A model generated the notes under the pieces. It did no database searches and was not told the DNA's origin. It was given only the letters and a program-made list of their open reading frames with translations. This document shows, in pieces, positions 1 through 61,655 of a stretch of DNA of 64,000 nt. Source of the DNA: Octopus vulgaris. Lineage: Eukaryota. The translations under genes and the position numbers were made by a program. The first letter of the stretch is position 1. Each line of letters starts with the position of its first letter. Location of the stretch: NCBI GenBank assembly GCA_951406725.2, contig OX597818.1, forward strand, positions 103,106,001 through 103,170,000. The letters run 5' to 3'.

Positions 1-14
1 AAAATCTAAATGTC

Positions 15-1139
15 TTGTGTTTGAATGAGATTGCCGAAAAAACATCACAAGTGGTCAACACACGATCCGTCAAACAGATTCGTAGCAAGTTGAAACATAT
101 CGAAGTATCTTTCAAACTGATAAGAGGCCATTATGAAAAGCTTCTACATATTTTCACAGTTCAAGAACAACAACAGCTAGAAAATCAGCAGCCACAACAA
201 CAACAACAACAGAATGAGCCACTCCTGGTTCCCAACACAATGGCTGACCCTGACATCGGTCAGGCACAACAACAACAACAACAGCCACAGCAACAAGAAC
301 AACAACAGCCACTCCTCAACTCTAGCTTACTAGACGATTCACTAAATGCCAGTATCTTTTCACCGCTCTCACAGCAACCACCACAATTATCATCATCATC
401 ATCACCACCGCTGCCACCATCGTCTTCTATCACCAAAAATACCAACAGAAAACCAAATAAGAAACCACTGCCCTCTTCCCCCACATCACCACCTCAATAC
501 TACTGCAGTAACAAAAACTTAAAGAAACATAGGAAGCAGAATGCGCCCCCCACGGCACAAACAAGAAATCCCCAAATATGCCGCTATTCACTGCGCCAGA
601 GACTCTGCACAAATAGTGACTGCATCTTCACGCATCTACCCGGCACTAGACGCACTACTGGCCAAGGCCAAAGCACGCATCCCACAATAACATCAACACC
701 ACCAAATAGTAAATCGAAATTCAAAACACACACAACTCGGAGTCCCAAAATCTGCCGGTATTCCCAACGTGAGAGAACATGTCTACTGAGTGACTGTCCC
801 TTCACTCATCTTCCAGGGACCCGACGCACAAACAGAAACGGGGCCTCAAGCCAACACACAAACCTGAATAACAATAAAAATAGAAACACACCATGCTGCA
901 GTAATGCTGGTCCAGTCTTTTCAGGAAGACACAAAAACAACAACAACAAAAGTGGAAACTACAACCCTATCCAACAGTGCAACCACACCTCCAGCCAAAA
1001 ACTGCTCCCTAAGCAGGAAAATTCTTTTTTAGCCATGTTGAACATGGCAAAAGAGATACACAAAAACATTCTAGCCATCACTCAACACCATCCTATGCTA
1101 TTACCCCAGTGCACCAATTCCCCACATTGCTGCCACTAA
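15..1139 (+). CDS. LINE ORF1 protein, 5'-incomplete; Q/P/S-rich linker with two C-x8-C-x4-C-x3-H zinc fingers
   Basis: Frame is open from the window start. Motifs CRYSLRQRLCTNSDCIFTH (579-635) and CRYSQRERTCLLSDCPFTH (753-809). Lies directly upstream of and overlaps the ORF2 frame. Confidence 0.8.
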   Translation: MCLNEIAEKTSQVVNTRSVKQIRSKLKHIEVSFKLIRGHYEKLLHIFTVQEQQQLENQQPQQQQQQNEPLLVPNTMADPDIGQAQQQQQQPQQQEQQQPLLNSSLLDDSLNASIFSPLSQQPPQLSSSSSPPLPPSSSITKNTNRKPNKKPLPSSPTSPPQYYCSNKNLKKHRKQNAPPTAQTRNPQICRYSLRQRLCTNSDCIFTHLPGTRRTTGQGQSTHPTITSTPPNSKSKFKTHTTRSPKICRYSQRERTCLLSDCPFTHLPGTRRTNRNGASSQHTNLNNNKNRNTPCCSNAGPVFSGRHKNNNNKSGNYNPIQQCNHTSSQKLLPKQENSFLAMLNMAKEIHKNILAITQHHPMLLPQCTNSPHCCH

Positions 1140-1870
1140 CACACACAAAAAATCCAAGCCCCCTGCAACAGTCAAAACCAGCCACTACACTAACCTCCAC
1201 ATTCCTACTCAATGCACAAGGTGTCAGCCCTTCCATCAATGCACAAAAATGGAAGGTCCAATTCATTGAAGACTGGGTTGGTAACCATTCACACCACATC
1301 CCTTTCTTCATTCTCACTGAGACCCACCTTGACAACTCCCACTTGGAAGCCGAAGTGAGAGTGAAGAATTTCACAACCATCCGCGCGGATCGTATCGGCA
1401 GGAGGAAGGGTGGAACTGCCATTTTCCTGCATGATTCATTTACGGCAGATGGAAATAGTATATTCTCCAACGGCTACTGTGAATCAGTCACCGTGCACAA
1501 CAAAGCCAATGATCTGACAGTAATTGGACTCTATAGGCCGCCCCAAACACCCATACTGTGCTTTAAAGAATGCCTCAACAGCATTAAGTGCTTTATTCAA
1601 CAGTGCCATTCTAGCAACATACTCATGATGGGAGACTTCAATCTACCCTGTGTTGACTGGACTACAAACTGTTTGAAACCAAGCAATCCCGCCTCAACCG
1701 CTGACAAAGAAGCAGCAGAGTCACTTTTCGACTTTACGAATGAGTTTTTCTTGTCCCAACTTGTCCTTGCACCAACAAGACATCAGAACATTTTGGACCT
1801 AGTGTTTAGTAACCACACTAACACTATACATAACGTTACAGTGGAAAAAAACCCTTCTTTCAGACCATGA
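1013..1870 (+). CDS. LINE ORF2 N-terminal part: AP-like endonuclease domain
   Basis: Motifs LLNAQG, ILTETHL, RADR..RKGGTAIF, LYRPP, MGDFN, NILDLVFSN. Frame open from 1013 (after TAA 1010-1012). The SDH motif falls in the next frame because of an extra A in the run at 1845-1851. Confidence 0.88.
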   Translation, partial: AGKFFFSHVEHGKRDTQKHSSHHSTPSYAITPVHQFPTLLPLTHTKNPSPLQQSKPATTLTSTFLLNAQGVSPSINAQKWKVQFIEDWVGNHSHHIPFFILTETHLDNSHLEAEVRVKNFTTIRADRIGRRKGGTAIFLHDSFTADGNSIFSNGYCESVTVHNKANDLTVIGLYRPPQTPILCFKECLNSIKCFIQQCHSSNILMMGDFNLPCVDWTTNCLKPSNPASTADKEAAESLFDFTNEFFLSQLVLAPTRHQNILDLVFSNHTNTIHNVTVEKNPSFRP

Positions 1871-1871
1871 C

Positions 1872-4145
1872 ATGGTTCTCTGTAACATGAAATTCCACCA
1901 GCCGAAAGCTAATCCTAGTGACCTTCCTCCAGCCCACCCATTTGACAACATGGATCTCCATAAAGCCAACTGGGATGCAATCAGGAACGAGCTATCAAAT
2001 GTTGACTGGTCCTTTACACATACACACATCTCCACCAACCATAAAACATCTTGGCAGATCTTTGTAGACACCGTCACAGACATATGTGCAAAACACTCCC
2101 CACCAAGACCTGTGAACAAAAAGTGCAGAATCCCCCAAAACAGAAAAACCATTATCAGAAAAATAAAAAGAACAAACAATAAAATTAACAAACTAAAGTA
2201 CTGCCAACAGCAACACACACATTCGACGGCTATCGCACTGCTTGAATCCAAAAAATATAACCTCCAACAATGCATGAAGTCCCTCATCAATAACCAAAGA
2301 TCAGCTGAGGAGAAGTGGGCCATTGAAAAAATCAAACTCAACCCCAAAGTGTTCTTTTCATTTGCGAGGAAACGCAGGGTCACTGTCTCCACTGTAGGCC
2401 CTCTAATTGACGAAACTGGCACTCTCCAAGATAATGCCAAATCCATGGCCGAGATACTGCAGAAACAATACTGCTCTGTTTTCAGCAATCCTGATATGGC
2501 CGATCTGGGCTGTATCAGTGATGTCAACCCCCAACACACTATATCGGACATAACGTTTAGTGCCCCTGATGTCTTAGCGGCGATAAACGAAATAAAACAC
2601 AATTCAGCAGTAGGCCCCGATAGGTTCCCTGCTTGTGTCCTGAAGGTGTGTCGACACCAACTTGCATCTCCCCTTGCTAATCTGTGGAGAAACTCACTGG
2701 ATGCTGGCTATATTCCAAAAAACCTTCTGTCCCAGTCTGTTGTCCCAGTTTTCAAAAAGGGAAACAAGTCCCTTGCAGTGAATTACCGTCCGATCTCACT
2801 CACCTCTCATATCATCAAGGTATTTGAGAGGGTGGTGAGATCTCAAATAACCCAATTTCTGGAAAGCAACAGACGGCTGATCTCCAACCAACATGGGTTC
2901 CGTAATGGAAGGGACTGCCTAACGCAGCTCCTGCATCACTTTGAGGACATTTTGAGAGCTTTGGGAGAGGGCTCCAACACCGATGTCATCTACCTTGATT
3001 TCAGTAAGGCCTTCGACAGGGTCGATCACAAGATCCTATTGAAAAAACTATCCAACATTGGTGTCTCTGGAAAGTTACTGAAATGGATTAAGTGTTTCCT
3101 GACAGACATATCTCAACATGTTGTAGTTGAAGGGGTAAGATCAAGCCCAGCCAAAGTCAGTAGTGGCGTTCCGCAAGGCACTGTGCTGGGCCCACTTCTT
3201 TTCATCATTTACATTAATGACATTAATGACATCATCAAGCACAGCAACATAAAAATCTTTGCAGATGACTCCAAGCTACAGAAGGTCATAAATGAGGCGA
3301 GTGACCGGACATGCCTTCAGTCAGATCTACTGGCTGTTATCCAATGGGCAGAAAAAAACAATATGCTGCTGAACGAGGATAAATTTGAGCTAATCCACTT
3401 TGGAAAAGAGGATGCCCTGAAACTCCCATACTCCCTTCCTTCAGGTGAAACTCTCACGGCGTCCAACAACATCAGAGACTTGGGAGTAATTGTGGACAAC
3501 AACGTAAGCTGGGCCACTCATATAAACACCAAAGTTGACATGGCCCGCAGAATGTGTTCCTGGATTCTCAGAACTTTCCAGTCGAGAGATATCCACACCA
3601 TTATCCTTCTCTTCTCCACTTTTGCCCGACCCCACCTTGAATACTGTTGTCCACTGTGGTCTCCCCACACAATACAAGGTATCATAAAAGTCGAAGCACC
3701 TCAAAGGGCAATCACAAAAAAGATAGATGGCATGACAGGCCTCGACTATTGGGGTCGACTAGAAAAGCTAAAACTCTATTCTCTCCAACGTCGTCGTGAG
3801 CGCTACATCATCTGCATGATGTGGAAAATATTCCATCAGCATTGCCCAAATGATGTTGGCATCACCTTTAAGGTACATCCAAGGCTTGGGCCCCGTGCCA
3901 TCCGCCCAAAACAAAAATCGCACTCTCATCTCATAACAACAATACGGCACAATTATTTCACCTCAATTGGCCCCGCTCTCTTTAACATTACACCAAAACA
4001 CATTAAAGCAGAAACTGACCCTATAGGGTTCAAGAAGTCTTTGGACAGATTCCTTCAAGAAATCCCGGATAAACCCCCTACACCCGGATATGTCTCTGTA
4101 AACAATAACTCTCTACTTGAGTGGGCCATAGTGCCCAAATTCTGA
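1872..4145 (+). CDS. LINE ORF2 C-terminal part: reverse transcriptase (CR1/L2 type)
   Basis: YRPISLTS, QHGFR, YLDFSKAFD, SGVPQGTVLGPLLF, FADD, RDLGV, RPHLEYCCPLWSP, LYSLQRRRER; 757 aa with no stops. Confidence 0.95.
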   Translation: MVLCNMKFHQPKANPSDLPPAHPFDNMDLHKANWDAIRNELSNVDWSFTHTHISTNHKTSWQIFVDTVTDICAKHSPPRPVNKKCRIPQNRKTIIRKIKRTNNKINKLKYCQQQHTHSTAIALLESKKYNLQQCMKSLINNQRSAEEKWAIEKIKLNPKVFFSFARKRRVTVSTVGPLIDETGTLQDNAKSMAEILQKQYCSVFSNPDMADLGCISDVNPQHTISDITFSAPDVLAAINEIKHNSAVGPDRFPACVLKVCRHQLASPLANLWRNSLDAGYIPKNLLSQSVVPVFKKGNKSLAVNYRPISLTSHIIKVFERVVRSQITQFLESNRRLISNQHGFRNGRDCLTQLLHHFEDILRALGEGSNTDVIYLDFSKAFDRVDHKILLKKLSNIGVSGKLLKWIKCFLTDISQHVVVEGVRSSPAKVSSGVPQGTVLGPLLFIIYINDINDIIKHSNIKIFADDSKLQKVINEASDRTCLQSDLLAVIQWAEKNNMLLNEDKFELIHFGKEDALKLPYSLPSGETLTASNNIRDLGVIVDNNVSWATHINTKVDMARRMCSWILRTFQSRDIHTIILLFSTFARPHLEYCCPLWSPHTIQGIIKVEAPQRAITKKIDGMTGLDYWGRLEKLKLYSLQRRRERYIICMMWKIFHQHCPNDVGITFKVHPRLGPRAIRPKQKSHSHLITTIRHNYFTSIGPALFNITPKHIKAETDPIGFKKSLDRFLQEIPDKPPTPGYVSVNNNSLLEWAIVPKF

Positions 4146-7704: not shown

Positions 7705-7708
<4 letters not shown>

Positions 7709-7896
7709 AAACAAGAAAGCACAAAAAAACACAACAACGCGAGGACGTGGAACAAATATTTTTAATGGACGCTCAGGAAAGAAGGAAAGAAGGAGGGTTT
7801 AACGTTTCGAGCGGAGCTCTTCGTCGGAAACATAGGAGAAGAAAAGATCCAGAGAAGGGAAGACAGAGGAAAAAAATCGCCAACGATACACACGTG

Positions 7897-11135: not shown

Positions 11136-11602
11136 AATCGAACTGATAACAAGCTGGGTTCTCTTTCTTTTACGAGGCTGGAGTCTTTGACACCATCGTC
11201 AAAAAGTCTTGGGTTGTCCGGAAAGTTCGTACCGATTTATAGTAGCTTACCTTTCGACTTATTTTAGAACAGAGTTGAGTCCATAAAATAGGATTTTACT
11301 ACATCTCCATTTTAAGCAATTTTTCGTGGAAGAGAATTGAATACTTCTATCATCTTTACGGTGGTACATCCATATAGTGCTTTAACTTACTTGATCGAAT
11401 TCAGAATCGAACTGATAACAAGCTGGGTTCTCTTTCTTTTACGAGGCTGGAGTCTTTGACACCATCGTCAAAAAGTCTTGGGTTGTCCGGAAAGTTCGTA
11501 CCGATTTATAGTAGCTTACCTTTCGACTTATTTTAGAACAGAGTTGAGTCCATAAAATAGGATTTTACTACATCTCCATTTTAAGCAATTTTTCGTGGAA
11601 GA
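11136..11602 (+). repeat. Direct duplication of about 198 bp (11136-11333 and 11405-11602) including the mariner left end
   Basis: The two copies look identical by eye; 71-bp spacer. Confidence 0.9.
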
Positions 11603-19420: not shown

Positions 19421-19778
19421 TATGGATAACTAAATTACAACAGGTATATAGCCCGTTGTCTGTATTATAGTGCATTGTTGCAACATTCAAAACATTTTAT
19501 TCTTTACAAACAATACACAGTGCTTCAAGCGAACTACATTACTCTCCTTTTTCTCTATAACTTTTAATTTAGCTTTATAGAAGATTGATATAGAGTGTTT
19601 GATGCATGGCACTGTGACACACTTATAAATTAATCTAATATATTTGTTAGAATATGCAAGCACAATACTAATGTAAATGTTAATGTGCTCTAGGTACCTG
19701 GTATGCAGCAGAAATATTACGGAGATGTACTTGCATAGCGTGGGACTTGATCTGGGATAGTGTGCTGCAACGAAAACA

Positions 19779-20054
19779 ATTGCAGTGTGAAAGGTGTTTA
19801 TAAGCCATTTAAGAAACGCTCAAAACCGTTAGATTCACTTTAACATTTAAATTTAATTTGTCAAAATATTTTCGTCGCTTTGAGACCGCGACTTGTTCAC
19901 TGACAAAACTTCGTGCTGCCCGAAGTTTTGTCAGTGAACAAGTCGTAGTCTCAAAGCGACGAAAATATTTTGACAAATTCAATTCAAATGTTGAAGTGAA
20001 TCTACGGTTTTGTGTGTTTCTTAAATGGCTTATAAACACCTTCCACACTGCGAT
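19779..20054. repeat. Near-perfect palindrome (about 135-bp arms, 7-nt spacer 19914-19920); each arm carries a variant hammerhead motif
   Basis: Arms are reverse complements with few mismatches. Right arm 19927-19977: tttgtca-GTGAACA-a-gtcg..cgac-GAAA-ATAT-TT-tgacaaa. Confidence 0.85.
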
Positions 20055-20185
20055 TTTTTTAATGGCTCTCTACATTCCAAGGAGTCATACATTCGATAAT
20101 TACAGCTGGATTTTCATATGAGTATTTCGTTTTTGGATTTGGCTTGCAAGATTCTTTATATGAGTTCGTGTGTTGAAGCATATTC

Positions 20186-26257: not shown

Positions 26258-26317
<60 letters not shown>

Positions 26318-26320
26318 CCT

Positions 26321-26620
26321 AATTTACAATATAAGGCCAAAAGAAAAATCCTAATGCCAAGTATGCCGAAAAAGTATGTCCTGCTCAGGACTTGGTGTTT
26401 GCTTTTTCCATGGGTATATATCTCGCGTATTTGCTGCTGAAGAGTAGAAAATTCTTATGAATTAACTCCGAAATTTGTCCAATGCGGTAATAACGAATTT
26501 TTTAGAAATTTGTATCGGTTTGTTTCGAGACGCATAAATTATAATGGTTAATTGACAATGTTTGTCTTTTTTTCGGCATACTTGGCATTAGAATTTTTTG
26601 TTTGCCCTTATATTGTAAAT
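26321..26620. repeat. Fold-back element (arms about 26321-26375 and 26566-26620) with internal CTGAAGA..GAAA..TC motif, between (TA)n tracts
   Basis: atttacaatataaggccaa..ctaatgccaagtatgccgaaaaa versus tttttcggcatacttggcattag..ccttatattgtaaat. Confidence 0.75.
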
Positions 26621-26716
26621 CATTTATAAATTCAACCTTTAAAGGTGTTTTTTGATATGCTGGCCATTGATAAAATCTTTTTCCCGAAAAAAATTTTATC
26701 CTAAATTAGTTATATG

Positions 26717-28556: not shown

Positions 28557-29508
28557 CACATGGTCACAATGAAAATTTTTGAAATGTAAATACGTGTTCC
28601 AAAATATAAATTTGGAAAGTATATATGCGAAACCCAATGCATAGCATTGCAACGTACACACGGCCACTAGTACGTAGCTTTGCAAGGAGTCTATTCCGGA
28701 GTTGCGGTAACACTGACGACACTTGAACAAAATAGTAATCTTTTGGAAGCAGTTAGTCATATCCAGAAATGCTAATATGTGTATTTTTTTGTTATCAACT
28801 TTCGTTTATCAGTTTCAGTTTTTGTTTACATCTTGATAAATATTATCAATAAATCATATTAAATAAGTTCTAAATAAGTTTGTAATATATATGGCCATAT
28901 TAAAGGTTATGAGACATTGTAGGTTGTTTTTTCAGCTCTTTTCAAATCTTCAGCAACATGAAGGAAATAAAGAGAAATATCAACTGCAATTAAAGAAATT
29001 TACGATGTTACGAAAATTATGATGCACTATATTCTAATTTTCTTTATTTCTGACATTTTCAATATACAGCAAAAAGAGAAAATACGCATTTTACATCGTG
29101 AATTTAATATCTTGGTTAAGAAAGAATTTATGACCAGTGCGGTATTTTGCCTTAGTAACGATGGATTGACTTGAAGATACATCGCACTAGCCACGAAATG
29201 ACCGGCAAAGTATATTGACCGAACAGCATACAGGCATATATACATACATATGTTCACATACACACACCCTTCCTTTCCTGAGCGTCCAATAACACTATAC
29301 TTGTTCCACGTCCTCGCGTTGTTGTGTTTTCTCTTTGTGTTTTCATGTTTGGATTAATTTTATATATATATATATACACAACGGGATTTGGTCGGCCCGA
29401 GCCTATACTAGAAGACACTTGCCCAAAGTGCCATGCTGTGGGAATGAACCCGGAACTATATGGTTGGTACGCAAGCTACTTACCAAACAGCCACTCCTTC
29501 GGCTATAT

Positions 29509-44446: not shown

Positions 44447-44766
44447 ATCTCGTTCAGAGATTTATTATTGCTTGCAGACAGTTTTTCGAAATCAGTGACG
44501 GCAGTTACTAGAAAAACACTAAAGTATTTGCATACAGGCTTACCCTTTCATCGTAAACCGGTGATTACCGCCTGTTGACAAGAGGCAACAACCTCGACAC
44601 TGCGGTCCGTGCGTATCACTTAGGCTTACGAGAGAGGGATGGCCTCCCTTTGCAAATACCATAAGAGCACAGATAGTATGCCTAAAGCCAGCTGGAGACG
44701 ATGATCACCTGGGGCTAAAAGCTACAGTAACACCCACCCTTTGTGGTTAGCCATATTGAGATGGCT
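44447..44766 (+). mobile_element. Diverged monomer of the 355-bp hammerhead-bearing family
   Basis: Colinear with the reverse complement of about 50998-51313; decayed motif TTGACAA-gagg..cctc-GACA-CTGCGG-TC-cgtgc at about 44575-44612. Confidence 0.8.
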
Positions 44767-44857
44767 ATTATACTTTAAATTGTTATAGTGTATTTGATAT
44801 ATCATAATATATTTATTTATTGCTATAATATCTCAGATATTGTCTATCTATCTATCC

Positions 44858-45045: not shown

Positions 45046-45076
<31 letters not shown>

Positions 45077-47082
45077 GGTAGTTCGCGTAAATGGACATCT
45101 ATCGAGACCTTTCGACATCGCACGTTCGGTTCGACAGGGATGCCCCCTCTCGTCGCTTCTATACGTATTGACTCTCGAGCCACTATTGCGGAAGCTGGCA
45201 ACTCTGAGGGGCATCCCGCGAGAACTGGGATGCGGGACGAGCGTGTCTGCATACGCGGACGACGTCACCGTCATAGTGTCTAGCCACGAGCACATCGAGC
45301 AGGTCGGCGAGACACTGAAAAACTACGAAGCAGTGACAGGAGCAAAAATCAACCGGGAAAAGTCAGTGGGCTTGCGACTAGGCACCTGGAGAAGCAAGCC
45401 CATGCCGTCCACTAGCGCCTCCGTTGTGGGACGCTGGACCGACGGTCCGGTCGAGTTGATCAGGGTCTGGTTCGGTCCGGACCTCCAAGTGGAGAAGAAC
45501 TGGAACGAGATAACGAGTAGGGTGGTCACTCTCGCCCAGCAATGGGCCGAGAGGAAACTGTCCCTAAACGGTCGGGTGGAGGTGGCGAACACGTACATCG
45601 CGTCCGTCATCTAATACCGCCTGACCGTCGTGCCTTGTCCCGACCCTACCATCACCAAACTAGAACGCATTCTCTTTTGCTTCTTGTGGAAAGGATGCAT
45701 CCCGATGGTCAGGCGATCCATTTGCTGTCAACGGCCGTTAAAAGGAGGACTGGGCATGCCGTGGTTGATGATGCGCAGACACGCGCTGAAACTGCGACAT
45801 CTCGGGCTCGTAGACGACGGTGAACAGGTGTGGTCGCCGTTTGTGAGGCACGCTTTCCCGCAGCTCGTCTCCATGAACGAACTGCAATCGTGGATCAAAA
45901 AGAGGCCGAGGAAGGGCGAATGGCACCGCGAGTGTCGCGTTGCTCTCAAGCAACTCTGCCGTCCTGGGTCAACCTTGAGTGACTCCATCACAACCAAAGC
46001 ATTCTATAGGGAATTAGTGGAGGGGAGGTACGACGACGATCTTGGGGCGAAACTGGATGTCAACGAGGAATACCTGACCCGCCTGTTCGGGACGACTTTC
46101 GGGCCAGGGCCCATGGACAACATCCAGAGATCCCTGGCCTGGCAGTTCTACCGAGAAGTGCTACCCGTTCGGGATAAGCTCTACAGACACGGCTCGAGAA
46201 ACACGGGGCCGACCTGCCCGAGATGCGGTCAGAGCGACGAAACCGTTCTGCACGCACTCGTACAGTGTCCAACAATTTCCGACCTGTGGGCTTATGTCGA
46301 ACAACTACTGTCACGTGTGGACGAGTCGGTTTATCAGCTGAGTCTATCGTCAATATTGTCACGCCTCCTTCCTTCAAACGGGAAGGAAGAGCTATTTTCA
46401 TCATCCTTGTGGCTATGGCGAAAGAATGTATCTGGTGGACGCGTCTGAAAGGATTGGAGACAAACACTTTCCTCTCTGGTCAACCTCTCATCAACTTCTT
46501 CAAATACCACTTGAAAAGGAAAGTGAGAGTAGAGAGGCAAGTTTTGTCTAGCGAACGTTTTAAGAAAAGATGGGTGAATGTAGCAAGGATGGCACGTATG
46601 AATGACGAAGCCACCTTGAGCATAATCCTATGAACCCAGAAATTGAAAACAGAGGGTTACACACTTGCAAACAAATGTGGTAACATATAACAATATTGAC
46701 GAAGGTTACCGTGGTCTTTTTCCTAGGCTTTTCTTCCCACGGATAAACCTTACTTGCTTTCCCCTTTACACCATACACATTGACACTGTGATACACGATC
46801 CCTATTGATAATTCCCCCCCCCCTTTTTTCCTCTTTTCTCTTCTTTTTTCATTTTTCTTTTCTTTTTAAACCCTTTTTCTTTTTTTTCTTTTCCTTTTTT
46901 TCCTTTTTTCTTTTTTCTTTTCCTTTTTTCTTCTTTTCTTTTTTTTAGTTCTTTTTTCCATTTTACGATCCCTTTTGATCGAAAACCTACGCCACCTTTT
47001 TTTTTCTCCCCCAAAAGAAAAGCTCTACCTTGTAACTTGTCCCATCTGTGTGTAGCCCTGTGTGGCCAATAAAGAAACTTAA
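45077..47082 (+). mobile_element. 5'-truncated Tx1/L1-clade LINE inserted in (TATC)n
   Basis: RT motifs SVRQGCPLS and AYADD, KINREKS, GGLGMP, zinc knuckle CPRC..ETVLHALVQC; pyrimidine-rich 3' UTR and AATAAA; GC-rich against flanks; TATC arrays at 44842-45076 and 47083-47450. Confidence 0.92.
45078..46633 (+). pseudogene. Disrupted Tx1-like ORF2 (RT C-terminal half plus zinc knuckle)
   Basis: In-frame TAA at 45612-45614 and a frameshift near 46320 split it into track ORFs 45168-45614, 45630-46448 and 46223-46633. Confidence 0.88.
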
Positions 47083-47416: not shown

Positions 47417-47528
<112 letters not shown>

Positions 47529-47584
47529 TTTGTTATCTCACTCAAATCATTGAAACAAGGATACCATTTAAGCTTTTAAATGTG

Positions 47585-47785
47585 CATTGTGTGTACCGTT
47601 GGCGATTTTTTTCCCTCTGTCTTCCGTTCTCTGGATCTTTCCTTCTCCTATGTTTCCGACGAAGAGGTCCGCTCGAAACGTTAAACCCTCCTTCTTTCCT
47701 TCATTCCTGAGCATCCAATAATACTATATTTGTTCAACGTCCTCGCGTTGTTGTTTTTTTGTGCTTTTTTGTTTGGATTAACTTT
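47585..47785 (+). mobile_element. Repeat family H1 with hammerhead-like motif at 47652-47686
   Basis: Homologous to 7705-7900 and 61445-61655. Confidence 0.75.
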
Positions 47786-48033
47786 TTATATATATATATA
47801 TATATAATTAATCAATATAGGGTGGCAAAAAAAAATTTTGTAGAATTCTTTTGCCACCAGCGGCCTAGTGGGAAAAAATTAAATAGTCATAAACCATTTT
47901 TAAGTTCAACATCACAATCAAGGAACGGCCATAATAGGCCATTCACCCACTAGAAATAACAGCCAAAAGCTTTAACCGCAAAATAACATCAATTCCGTAA
48001 ACCAGGAGAAAATTAAAAAACATTTACCCTGTA

Positions 48034-48140
48034 ATTTCTTAGACGATGCACCGTTTCATCTACTGTTTAATGGTAAACTAACCTGATTAAATTAAATCAA
48101 GCCAATCTACCATAGGCCCTTAGATTCATCAGTAAGAAAT
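48034..48140 (-). ncRNA. Type I hammerhead ribozyme, canonical core
   Basis: Reverse complement of 48810-48916. Confidence 0.9.
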
Positions 48141-48809
48141 AGCCAAGTCGGAACAGATATTTTTCACGAGGCATTCTCGTTGCTACCTCGGCAATATCTG
48201 ACCTAAAATTTTCAAATCGTCGCACTCGCGCCAAATTTATCGGCAGCAAATAAATATAAGCCGCCGATTCCATTACGTAATTAACCAGAAAATTCATAAT
48301 TAATCAATATAGGGTGGCAAAAAAAAATTTTGTAGAATTCTTTTGCCACCAGCGGCCTAGTGGGAAAAAATTAAATAGTCATAAACCATTTTTAAGTTCA
48401 ACATCACAATCAAGGAACGGCCATAATAGGCCATTCACCCACTAGAAATAACAGCCAAAAGCTTTAACCGCAAAATAACATCAATTCCGTAAACCAGGAG
48501 AAAATTAAAAAACATTTACCCTGATTGTGATTTACCTTGATTGTGATGTTGAACTTAAAAATGGTTTATGACTATTTAATTTTTTCCCACTAGGCCGCTG
48601 GTGGCAAAAGAATTCTACAAAATTTTTTTTTGCCACCCTATATTGATTAATTATGAATTTTCTGGTTAATTCCGTAATGGAATCGGCGGCTTATATTTAT
48701 TTGCTGCCGATAAATTTGGCGCGAGTGCGACGATTTGAAAATTTTAGGTCAGATATTGCCGAGGTAGCAACGAGAATGCCTCGTGAAAAATATCTGTTCC
48801 GACTTGGCT

Positions 48810-48916
48810 ATTTCTTACTGATGAATCTAAGGGCCTATGGTAGATTGGCTTGATTTAATTTAATCAGGTTAGTTTACCATTAAACAGTAGATGAAACGGT
48901 GCATCGTCTAAGAAAT
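48810..48916 (+). ncRNA. Type I hammerhead ribozyme, canonical core; predicted cleavage after GUC at 48908
   Basis: Stem I atttctta/taagaaat (8 bp); CTGATGA 48818-48824; stem II atcta/tagat, 7x7 internal loop, then about 19-bp extension; GAAA 48893-48896; stem III A-cggtgcatcg-T; C17. Confidence 0.92.
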
Positions 48917-49034
48917 TACAGGGTAAATGTTTTTTAATTTTCTCCTGGTTTACGGAATTGATGTTATTTTGCGGTTAAAGCTTTTGGCTGTTATTTCTAG
49001 TGGGTGAATGGCCTATTATGGCCGTTCCTTGATT

Positions 49035-49072
<38 letters not shown>

Positions 49073-49437
49073 CATACATAAATATATGCATATAAGTATA
49101 CATAAATTAATATCTGTATGCTGACACATTTCTGCACATATCTCTGCTTGCGCATATGCATTTATCACGTTATTTCAGGATACAGATATTCTCAGACCGT
49201 CACAAGCAATATCCGGGAAATTCAATTGTGGATTAAGTGATCTATTGGCTATAATCGATGTTGGTTTTCAGGCTTCCAATCAAATCGGTCCAGTGAAACG
49301 TAGTGATCTCCATCAGACCTCAGATGTTGGTCTTCTTACCCTATGAAGATGTTGCTCCCAAGATATGCTTTGTTCCTGTGAATTCCTTTGAATACATTTT
49401 TGTGGGATAACAGATTATAAAACGTTCTTAGAATATA

Positions 49438-50009
49438 TTGGGTTGTCCGGAAAGTTCGTGGCAATTTTTAAACGAAGGAAAAAGTTCAATAAATACTTAC
49501 CATTACATTTTTAATCAACCAAACATGAACCATTCTGTTGCACAATGCGTCTCCATCTTTCCTTTAACTTGAAAATACCTTCTTCATAGAATTGAGGTGG
49601 TTTCATGGCAAAGAATTCATCAAGGTATCTTTTTAAGTCATCTAAGCAATTGAAATTTTTACCATTAAGTCTATTATGCAGAGACCTGAATAAGGGGAAA
49701 TCCGAAGGGGCAATATCTGGTGAATATGGATGGTGAGGGTGGGGTAACACATCCCAGCCGAGCTGCAGCAATTTTTGTCTGGTTCCCAAAGCATCAATTG
49801 CCGAAAGAGAACTTTCTTATCTTCCATTTTAAAGGGTTACAGAATTAACACAGGTTATAGGAACATAAACCTTCTTCCACGAAAAGATAGCTTAAACTGT
49901 GCTCTAAATAGAGGTGTTGTCAAATCCTATTTTATGGATACAACCATGTTCTAAAATTAGTCGAAAGTTAAGCTACTATAAACCGGCATGAACTTTCCGG
50001 ACAACCCAA
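49438..50009 (-). mobile_element. Non-autonomous mariner, second copy
   Basis: TA-ttgggttgtccggaaagttc ... gaactttccggacaacccaa-TA; HPYSPDIAPSDF motif; same internal deletion as the 11478 copy. Confidence 0.92.
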
Positions 50010-50891: not shown

Positions 50892-50938
<47 letters not shown>

Positions 50939-50939
<1 letters not shown>

Positions 50940-51497
50940 ATAATAAATCTCTGAACGAGGTATAAACAGTAACTGCACGACAATGTGAGATATACTTGCC
51001 ATCTCAATATGGCTAGCCACTAAGGGTGGGTGTTACTATAGCTTGTAGCCCCAGGAGAACATTGTCTCCAGCTGGCTTTAGGCACACTTTCTGTGCCGTT
51101 ATGGTATTTGCAAAGGGAGGTCACCCTTCCCTCGTCAACCTGAGTGATACGCACGGACTGCAGTTTCTAGGTTTTGACCTGTCATCAGCGTACGACAATC
51201 ACCGGTTTTCGATGAAGGGAGGTCCCAATGCAAATTCTGATATTGTTTTTCCAGTAACCTTTCGTCACTGATTTCGAAAAACTGTCTGCAAGCAATAATA
51301 AATCTCTGAACGCGGTATAAACAGTAACTGCACGACAATGTGAGGTATACTTGCCATCTCAATATGGCTAACCACTAAGGGTGAGTGAGGGAATGGTGAC
51401 CTCCCTTTGCAAATACCATAAGGGCACAGAAAGTGTGCCTAAAGCCAGCTGGAGATGATGTTCTCCTGGGGCTACAAGCTACAGTAACGCCCACCCT
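50939..51497. mobile_element. Second hammerhead-containing element: about 355-bp unit, 1.26 copies plus an inverted fragment
   Basis: 50939 repeats at 51294 (to about 51386); 51387-51497 is the reverse complement of about 51025-51134; left end abuts (TA)n. Confidence 0.85.
51151..51193 (-). ncRNA. Minimal type I hammerhead ribozyme
   Basis: Minus strand gtacg-CTGATGA-c-aggt-caaa-acct-a-GAAA-CTGCAG-TC-cgtgc; 5-bp stem I, palindromic loop III, GUC site. Confidence 0.8.
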
Positions 51498-59721: not shown

Positions 59722-59805
<84 letters not shown>

Positions 59806-59806
<1 letters not shown>

Positions 59807-60008
59807 TAATCAAAATAAGCAACAAGGATATCCAGAGGTAATGCAGTATAATCGTTTCATGCGACTCCATTTAATTGAACAATGCAAATATTACATCAGT
59901 TTTAAAATGTAGAGCAATCTTCAGCTGTATGAAAATATAGAATTTTTCTATATCTTTATAGATCGTACTGCATTACTCCTAGATATCCTTGTTGCTTATT
60001 TTTATTGT
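59806..60008. repeat. Fold-back element with minus-strand hammerhead motif at 59841-59930
   Basis: Arms aaaataagcaacaaggatatc..gtaatgcagta versus tactgcattac..gatatccttgttgcttatttt. Motif atacag-CTGAAGA-ttgc..gcat-GAAA-CGATTA-TA-ctgcat; the other arm retains GATCG-TA. Confidence 0.72.
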
Positions 60009-60105
60009 AATCACCCCATTATGAATTATATGGATAATACCATACTAAATTCTTGTGCCTTTAACTTAAGTACCATATTCAACTGAATCTAAATTTTACT
60101 GAACT

Positions 60106-61444: not shown

Positions 61445-61649
61445 AATATGTGACCGCGTGTGTATCATTGGCGATTTTCTTTCTCCGTCTTCTCTTCCTT
61501 GGACCTTTACTTTTTCTATGTTTCTGACGAAGAGCTCCGCCCGAAACGTTAAATCCTCCTTTCTTTCCTTTCCTGAGCTTCCAATTACTGTATACTTGTT
61601 CCACGTCCTCGCGTTGTTGTGTTTTCTCATTGTGTTTTCATGTTTGGAT

Positions 61650-61655
<6 letters not shown>
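61445..61655 (+). mobile_element. Repeat family H1 with hammerhead motif (intact CTGACGA) at 61520-61554
   Basis: gttt-CTGACGA-a-gagc-tcc-gccc-GAAA-CG-TT-aaat; 3' end gtttggattaact runs into (AT)n. Confidence 0.78.

Follow-up and report, generated by a model that had tools for sequence, protein, structure and literature searches.

The element at positions 47804-49039 is a recent insertion of a small non-coding retroelement with a predicted self-cutting ribozyme, present as two back-to-back copies in an AT microsatellite. Its breakpoints, together with those of its family in public contigs, suggest that what is copied into the genome is linear RNA cut by the ribozyme and not an RNA circle. The stretch of DNA that was analyzed, referred to here as the window, comprises 64,000 nucleotides of Octopus vulgaris and is rich in microsatellites. 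The anatomy of the element had been described in an earlier, sequence-only reading and proved to be real, although the interval given there, 48296..48546, takes in just a 228-nt repeat and the junction rather than the whole element.

The unit period, seen in both arms, is 492 nt. Units are numbered from window position 48909, the first base past the predicted GUC cut of a hammerhead ribozyme, which is unit 1. The main parts of the element are as follows.

47804..48523, minus strand: left arm, 720 nt; 48523 to 47804 corresponds to unit 11 to 492+238
48278: the sole base that differs between the arms, unit 256
48524..48534: filler of 11 nt, pieced together from the start of the right arm and the end of the left arm via 2-nt microhomologies
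48535..49039, plus strand: right arm, 505 nt, unit 119 to 492+131

As had been claimed, two arms diverge from a central junction, a minus arm and a plus arm, both of them longer than one unit (720 and 505 nt against a period of 492), and the 5' end of the left arm, at 48523, maps to unit 11, 10 nt downstream of the predicted cleavage site. The left arm contains a direct repeat of 228 nt (47804-48031 and 48296-48523). The length of the right arm exceeds one unit by 13 nt, and this arm starts and finishes with the same 13 nt (the 48524-48547 and 49027-49039 region). The flanks of the element are two unrelated unique sequences. No poly(A) was found in them; on both sides the element adjoins (AT)n, in which a target duplication is not discernible. 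A MITE-like or TIR reading was rejected because the arms are permutations of a tandem unit, staggered against each other and without fixed termini.

Public runs were queried with 47527-49500, and 48470-49300 was aligned to the contigs of four of the 24 runs (X1, X2, X4 and X10), the letters 49028-49092 being skipped as repeats. X1, X2 and X4 are DNA-type runs and X10 was taken as RNA by guess; the runs guessed as RNA, with shares of 0.27-0.30, were left out except X10. The X10 contigs cover the unit, and the X4 contigs leave the right flank uncovered, a gap that is uninformative. The family is present in high copy, with one 72-nt contig reaching a depth of 3457 compared with 21.3 for the unique flank in X2. 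Public contigs run on from 48535 into upstream unit sequence, that is, into head-to-tail units. A pattern of 23 nt from the unit gave no stretches in metagenome contigs.

The two arms are identical at 46 of 46 variable places and thus carry one haplotype; the base at 48278 is not listed among the read-derived variable places. The window carries the minor allele at three of these places (14-38% in X1). These observations are best explained if both arms derive from one donor haplotype, either as one trimer or as two sister RNAs. In a scan of the window, no stop-free frame of at least 130 codons overlapped the element, and the GC content is 0.36 over 48001-50000. Each arm has one hammerhead, in opposite orientation, so that there are no two consecutive ribozyme-bearing units at the locus, the arrangement that is called an 'active' retrozyme in the available text of bioRxiv 10.64898/2026.07.22.740005. 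The focal copy is therefore an offspring and not a donor array.

The hammerhead elements of the two arms are listed below.

48810..48916, plus strand: type I hammerhead of the right arm, found by direct inspection, predicted cut between 48908 and 48909
48810-17 with 48909-16, plus strand: stem I
48818-24, plus strand: CUGAUGA
48825-29 with 48888-92, plus strand: stem II, which carries a long inserted hairpin
48893-95, plus strand: GAA
48896-99 with 48904-07, plus strand: stem III, with a palindromic UGCA loop
48042..48132, minus strand: left-arm core of the type I hammerhead, which was read through and is hence uncut in the template

The hammerhead was called by direct inspection and by a strict type I descriptor, and self-cleavage is predicted. 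The descriptor found three sites in 64 kb, one in each focal arm and one in another family. At the gathering score nothing in Rfam matched, and matches with E up to 10 were chance microsatellite matches only. All three stems pair, and the hammerhead fold lies 3.3 kcal/mol above the minimum. When the unit was folded as a circle, the sense strand had a z of -7.8 and the antisense strand -5.0 (30 shuffles each). The public contigs contain 36 variable places, which include none of the 11 invariant core bases (P=0.44, not significant alone) and both of the free hammerhead positions, 7 and 17 (P about 0.005). By eye, the sequence at a loose end seen at 48864 in both X1 and X4 looks like a variant of the long hairpin (48836-48877) in which G-U pairs are replaced by Watson-Crick pairs. 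A short stem III with a palindromic loop is described in PMC4209133 as a hammerhead form said to need dimers; by analogy, multimers of the focal unit would stay partly uncut.

The contigs were then read for joints between unit sequences. Twenty joints were detected and 19 were readable, 15 of them displayed and four taken from the filler table. Fifteen of the 19, across the three DNA-type runs, are head-to-head: they leave a left-arm stub and enter the right arm, and so are inversions like that of the window. The sequence-only reading had proposed that 5' ends should lie near the cleavage site, and this was borne out in the contigs, where all 15 have one arm, on the stub side, that starts at unit 11-33. 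Their partners start at unit 6-31 in seven cases and are scattered over 95-449 in eight; the scattered 5' ends are no nearer to start sites than expected by chance (P=0.16). At 7/15 head-to-head joints, then, neither arm begins more than 33 nt from the cut. After merging three near-identical rows, 13 events remain, 5/13 with both ends at most 33 nt from it (P about 0.001). Among the four non-stub joints, two restart exactly at unit 1 on the same strand (P about 4e-4), the third has its landing point 4-6 nt before the cut, and the fourth is of an undisplayed kind. All three same-strand joints are marked 'between: not known'. The ratio of joint depth to single-copy depth is 0.40-1.27 in X1 (9 joints) and 0.26-0.47 in X2 (3 joints), as for germline alleles, and two joints recur in two runs from different studies.

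The possibility was considered that the clustering reflects how the joints were found. The stub covers unit 11-64 only, so that ends at unit 1-10 are invisible on the stub side and ends at unit 11-45 are favored. However, 0/13 events fall at unit 34-45 although they would be detectable there (P about 0.004). Furthermore, uniform ends predict about 94 inversions elsewhere, compared with at most two possible joints, the sensitivity of the tool in that region being uncertain. The clustering on the partner side is independent of the stub and speaks against a pure bias. Since ends pile up at the cut, linear cut RNA is favored over a circle as the template. Of the circular or multimeric RNA proposed in the sequence-only reading, the circle is disfavored by these ends and the multimers are retained, as cut linear RNA.

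The filler at the central junction had been said to be patched from both arms, and this holds. Together with two flanking bases per side, it shares 10 nt with the start of the right arm and 7 nt with the end of the left arm, and random fillers matched both ends as well in 7 of 100,000 trials. The first patch of the filler stops at unit 131, as the right arm does. Filler that is templated from within about 30 nt of both ends is the signature of polymerase-theta-type end joining. The focal filler, templated near both ends, fits this pattern, and two read-derived fillers from other joints are likewise copied from the arms; RT could also produce templated filler. The focal filler junction appears in no displayed contig-joint row; confirmation in reads is confined to analogous junctions of the family.

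The outer 3' ends of the arms lie at the following features.

47787..47806: left (AT)n target tract, 20 nt, the last 3 nt common to the left-arm 3' end
47810..47813, minus strand: GATT, unit 229-232, ending 6 nt before the left-arm 3' end
49031..49034, plus strand: GATT, unit 123-126, ending 5 nt before the right-arm 3' end
49038..49065: right (AT)n target tract, 28 nt, the first 2 nt common to the right-arm 3' end

Both ends had been read as finishing on AT microhomology. The overlaps of 3 and 2 nt are present, but they are so short that both would occur together by chance with a probability of about 0.02-0.03, which by itself makes weak evidence; the ends appear to be linked to GATT and not placed by AT microhomology alone. 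The unit has five GATT sites, and both 3' ends in the window are 5-6 nt past one. The rule that a 3' end lies 3-7 nt past GATT was drawn post hoc from these two ends and then proved true of 3/3 same-strand joints (P about 0.002-0.004 given their microhomology), in which the upstream pieces end at unit 233-235, 326-327 and 444-447. Only GATT and the overlapping TTGA fit all five 3' ends. One X10 contig passes from unit 238 into (AT)n, and may be the focal allele itself or a repeat event. As a general rule at (AT)n edges GATT was rejected: it was found at 9/66 sides, 8 of those 9 seen beforehand, and at new (AT)n sides in 1/58, against a background of 4.65%. At the same-strand joints, GATT could alternatively be the site where the DNA of an older copy was nicked; the anole PLE enzyme is reported to prefer ATT (PMC11167929).

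Additional hammerhead-bearing repeats were present in the window.

50936..51497: second hammerhead family, 355-nt unit, core 51188-51156 on the minus strand, left end in (TA)n
47589..47782, plus strand: older repeat with a minimal hammerhead-like core at 47656-47679, which ends GGATTAAC before (TA)n

The 355-nt unit of the second family is unrelated to the 492-nt unit. Its minus arm runs from unit 124-128 to 355+219, through an uncut ribozyme, and its plus arm from unit 23 to 133, i.e., it starts at cut+23 and ends without a preceding GATT. The arms are 92% alike and overlap by 6-10 nt, as in L1 (chance about 0.005, post hoc); the right flank is not (AT)n. This geometry is what twin priming would leave on a single linear RNA that starts at the cut. 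A further copy of the second family, 83% alike and with a decayed core, lies at 44451-44783.

The older repeat in the left flank, labeled a pLTR-like 3' fragment by inference, has further copies at 7705-7893, 61458-61653 and 29275-29366, and the family has an almost fixed 3' end before (TA)n. These are probably Penelope-like pLTR copies that have lost their 5' parts, and they would form a candidate partner lineage. The family reads through its minimal core, so that stopping at the cut is not universal in the window. Comparison of the focal unit with two pLTR-like fragments and the second family gave a best E of 1.6, none significant. Small head-to-head elements by (AT)n, with arms that have matching 3' ends, were also seen at 59805-60009 and 26311-26631; near 26437-26480 the latter contains a hammerhead-like core, which the strict descriptor does not accept, and the former also lacks a strict hammerhead. 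Elsewhere in the window are a near-perfect palindrome of 280 nt that is 92% self-complementary and MITE-like (19773-20060) and an exact direct repeat of 198 nt (11136-11333 and 11405-11602).

By its features the focal element would be a copy of a non-LTR retrozyme. Metazoan non-LTR retrozymes are reported to have units of about 170-400 nt, and PLEs have been proposed as the partner that mobilizes them (PMC7229834; bioRxiv 10.64898/2026.07.22.740005). The focal unit resembles them in being short, non-coding, AT-rich and multicopy and in having a type I hammerhead, and it differs in its length of 492 nt, the long hairpin in stem II and the head-to-head copies in (AT)n. In the retrozyme model as presented in PMC7229834, RT acts on circles, whereas the breakpoints of the focal family point to cut linear RNA. 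Insertions of Neptune and Naiad PLEs are described as including partial tandems, as carrying at their 5' end an inverted copy that is itself 5'-truncated, and as biased toward (TA)n (PMC8557442). The focal family likewise shows partial tandems, inverted copies in (TA)n and undiscernible target duplications; unlike these PLEs, the focal element has no ORF, its arms start at different 3' points, and its 5' ends are tied to the cut.

For the PLE machinery itself, purified anole Poseidon PAc is reported to cut and extend both strands of AT-rich DNA and is a predicted dimer; its RT starts internally at a few defined RNA sites, and its priming requires no homology (PMC11167929). By analogy, cutting and extension of both strands, internal starts and a predicted dimer would make two-ended priming plausible. 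In contrast to anole PAc, the ends of the focal family cluster at the cut and have an AT overlap of 2-3 nt. The same source reports that ribozyme cutting is dispensable in vitro and that no RNA-seq ends lie at the cut, and this dispensability is in real tension with a model based on cut linear RNA.

The mechanism that is preferred, and held with slightly more belief than doubt, is that the focal element is a non-LTR retrozyme copy in which a Penelope-like enzyme, acting in trans, primed both ends of a (TA)n break on cut linear multimers, the resulting cDNAs being linked by end-joining. Tandem donors would be transcribed into multimeric RNA, in which the weak, dimer-type hammerhead would cut at some sites only, leaving linear RNAs with the cut as 5' end and with uncut internal ribozymes. 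A Penelope-like RT/GIY-YIG enzyme would break (TA)n and extend both ends, RT starting on the RNA 3-7 nt past a GAUU motif with the aid of 2-3 nt of AT pairing. The breakpoints support the next step, in which cDNA would pass internal ribozymes up to the cut end or stop early. The two cDNA 3' ends would then be trimmed by about 5-30 nt and joined by microhomology with templated fillers, a pattern that is seen at the junctions, presumably by an end-joining enzyme. A jump of RT from the cut end to another start site would yield a same-strand partial tandem. The more specific proposal, that the hammerhead sets the template 5' end in vivo, that GAUU sets the RT start, and that a dimeric Penelope-like enzyme copies ribozyme-cut linear multimers at both ends of a (TA)n break, so that retrozymes of this animal would spread from these and not from circles, is tentative and given somewhat less than an even chance.

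No PLE ORF with RT plus GIY-YIG was found in the focal element, and the seven window ORFs scanned gave LINE-type domains or nothing. A LINE-type element with long open frames lies at 3-4142, with endonuclease (PF14529, PF03372) and RT (PF00078) in overlapping frames, and a second LINE fragment with RT and zf-RVT domains at 45075-46445 begins directly after a (TCTA)n tract.

The focal insertion would work like twin priming, yet it is no L1 event. In L1 twin priming, opposite cDNAs are described as joined at their 3' ends by microcomplementarity (bioRxiv 10.1101/2024.08.27.596794; PMC12016303), and the median inversion overlaps are given as 22 and 12 nt, respectively. The 6-10-nt overlap of the second family is similar, and the focal overlap of 120 nt is atypical; set beside the L1 medians of 12-22 nt in the same two sources, it counts against a two-ended model on a single RNA. 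The focal copy also differs from L1 in that it lacks poly(A) and a TTTT/A site, and a target duplication is not visible. Moreover, some copies have two arms that both extend to the RNA 5' end, a structure that a single linear monomer cannot yield. The claim of a twin-primed insertion is upheld in part: the recurrent head-to-head joints at the cut, the patched fillers and the geometry of the second family agree with it, and the junction is fitted by a snap-back as well.

In such a snap-back, a single cDNA, the left arm, would reach the cut end, fold back at unit 119, copy itself for 505 nt and be joined by microhomology to the far (AT)n. The right arm does lie wholly within the span of the left arm and shares its haplotype, the focal filler parses equally well, and the short loops that a fold-back is expected to form have a counterpart in the five of 13 events with both ends near the cut. 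Snap-back is known in R2 insertions, chiefly after full-length cDNA (PMC11371274), and the focal element resembles those described there in having an antisense-sense junction after full-length cDNA on a ribozyme-cut template. It differs from them in that the second arm is long, 505 nt being a long self-copy, and in that this arm ends at a motif-linked site: its 3' end is 5 nt past GATT, a placement of only 7/50 AT sites of the unit. A snap-back also leaves the coincidences of the second family unexplained, where one arm starts at cut+23 and ends at the start of the other. Snap-back, the main rival, is judged unlikely, while keeping an appreciable chance of being correct. The cut linear RNA as template holds under both the two-ended and the snap-back model.

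It is improbable that twin priming took place on an RNA circle that was covalently closed, with RT rolling around it and the 5' ends clustering through stalling at hammerhead stem I. The circle is the template in the published model, as set out in PMC7229834, and the strong folding of the sense unit as a circle agrees with it. The best hint of such a circle, which counts against the linear template, is the length of the right arm, 13 nt more than one turn (chance about 13/492, post hoc). In addition, the left end at unit 11 is at the edge of extended stem I, and stalling at this stem (unit 1-14) could mimic run-off at the cut. However, two joints restart exactly at unit 1, although a circle would offer no 5' end there; each arm passed one ribozyme without stopping; and two cDNAs of more than one turn would collide on one 492-nt circle.

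Finally, an inversion that arose after insertion, through fold-back or template switching at the DNA level, or else a chimera of the assembly or the library, would account for the near-identical arms and for a focal junction seen in no displayed joint row, and recurrent fold-backs in a high-copy family could attain depths of 20-80, but this is the least probable explanation, indeed very improbable, given that the flanks are unrelated unique sequences, that the filler is templated from both ends, that many distinct joints tied to the ribozyme cut occur at allele-like depth in three studies, and that some joints have unique fillers and distant partners.

The ingredients of the preferred mechanism, two-ended priming on cut linear RNA, are all known separately, and a link of breakpoints to the ribozyme cut was not found in print. 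The literature searched, to which most subscription papers, including older Penelope reviews that may already make such a proposal, did not belong, contained nothing that ties PLEs or retrozymes to twin priming, and nothing that links retrozyme 5' ends to the ribozyme cut. The mechanism of tandem and inverted PLE insertions is called still undefined in PMC8557442, and how PLEs make such insertions and the purpose of their hammerhead are stated as open questions (PMC8557442; PMC11167929). A young, high-copy family with a short unit records both cDNA ends, which makes both questions countable in one assembly. If the mechanism is true, it would provide a breakpoint-level explanation for the inverted and partial-tandem structures of PLEs, and a function for the PLE ribozyme.
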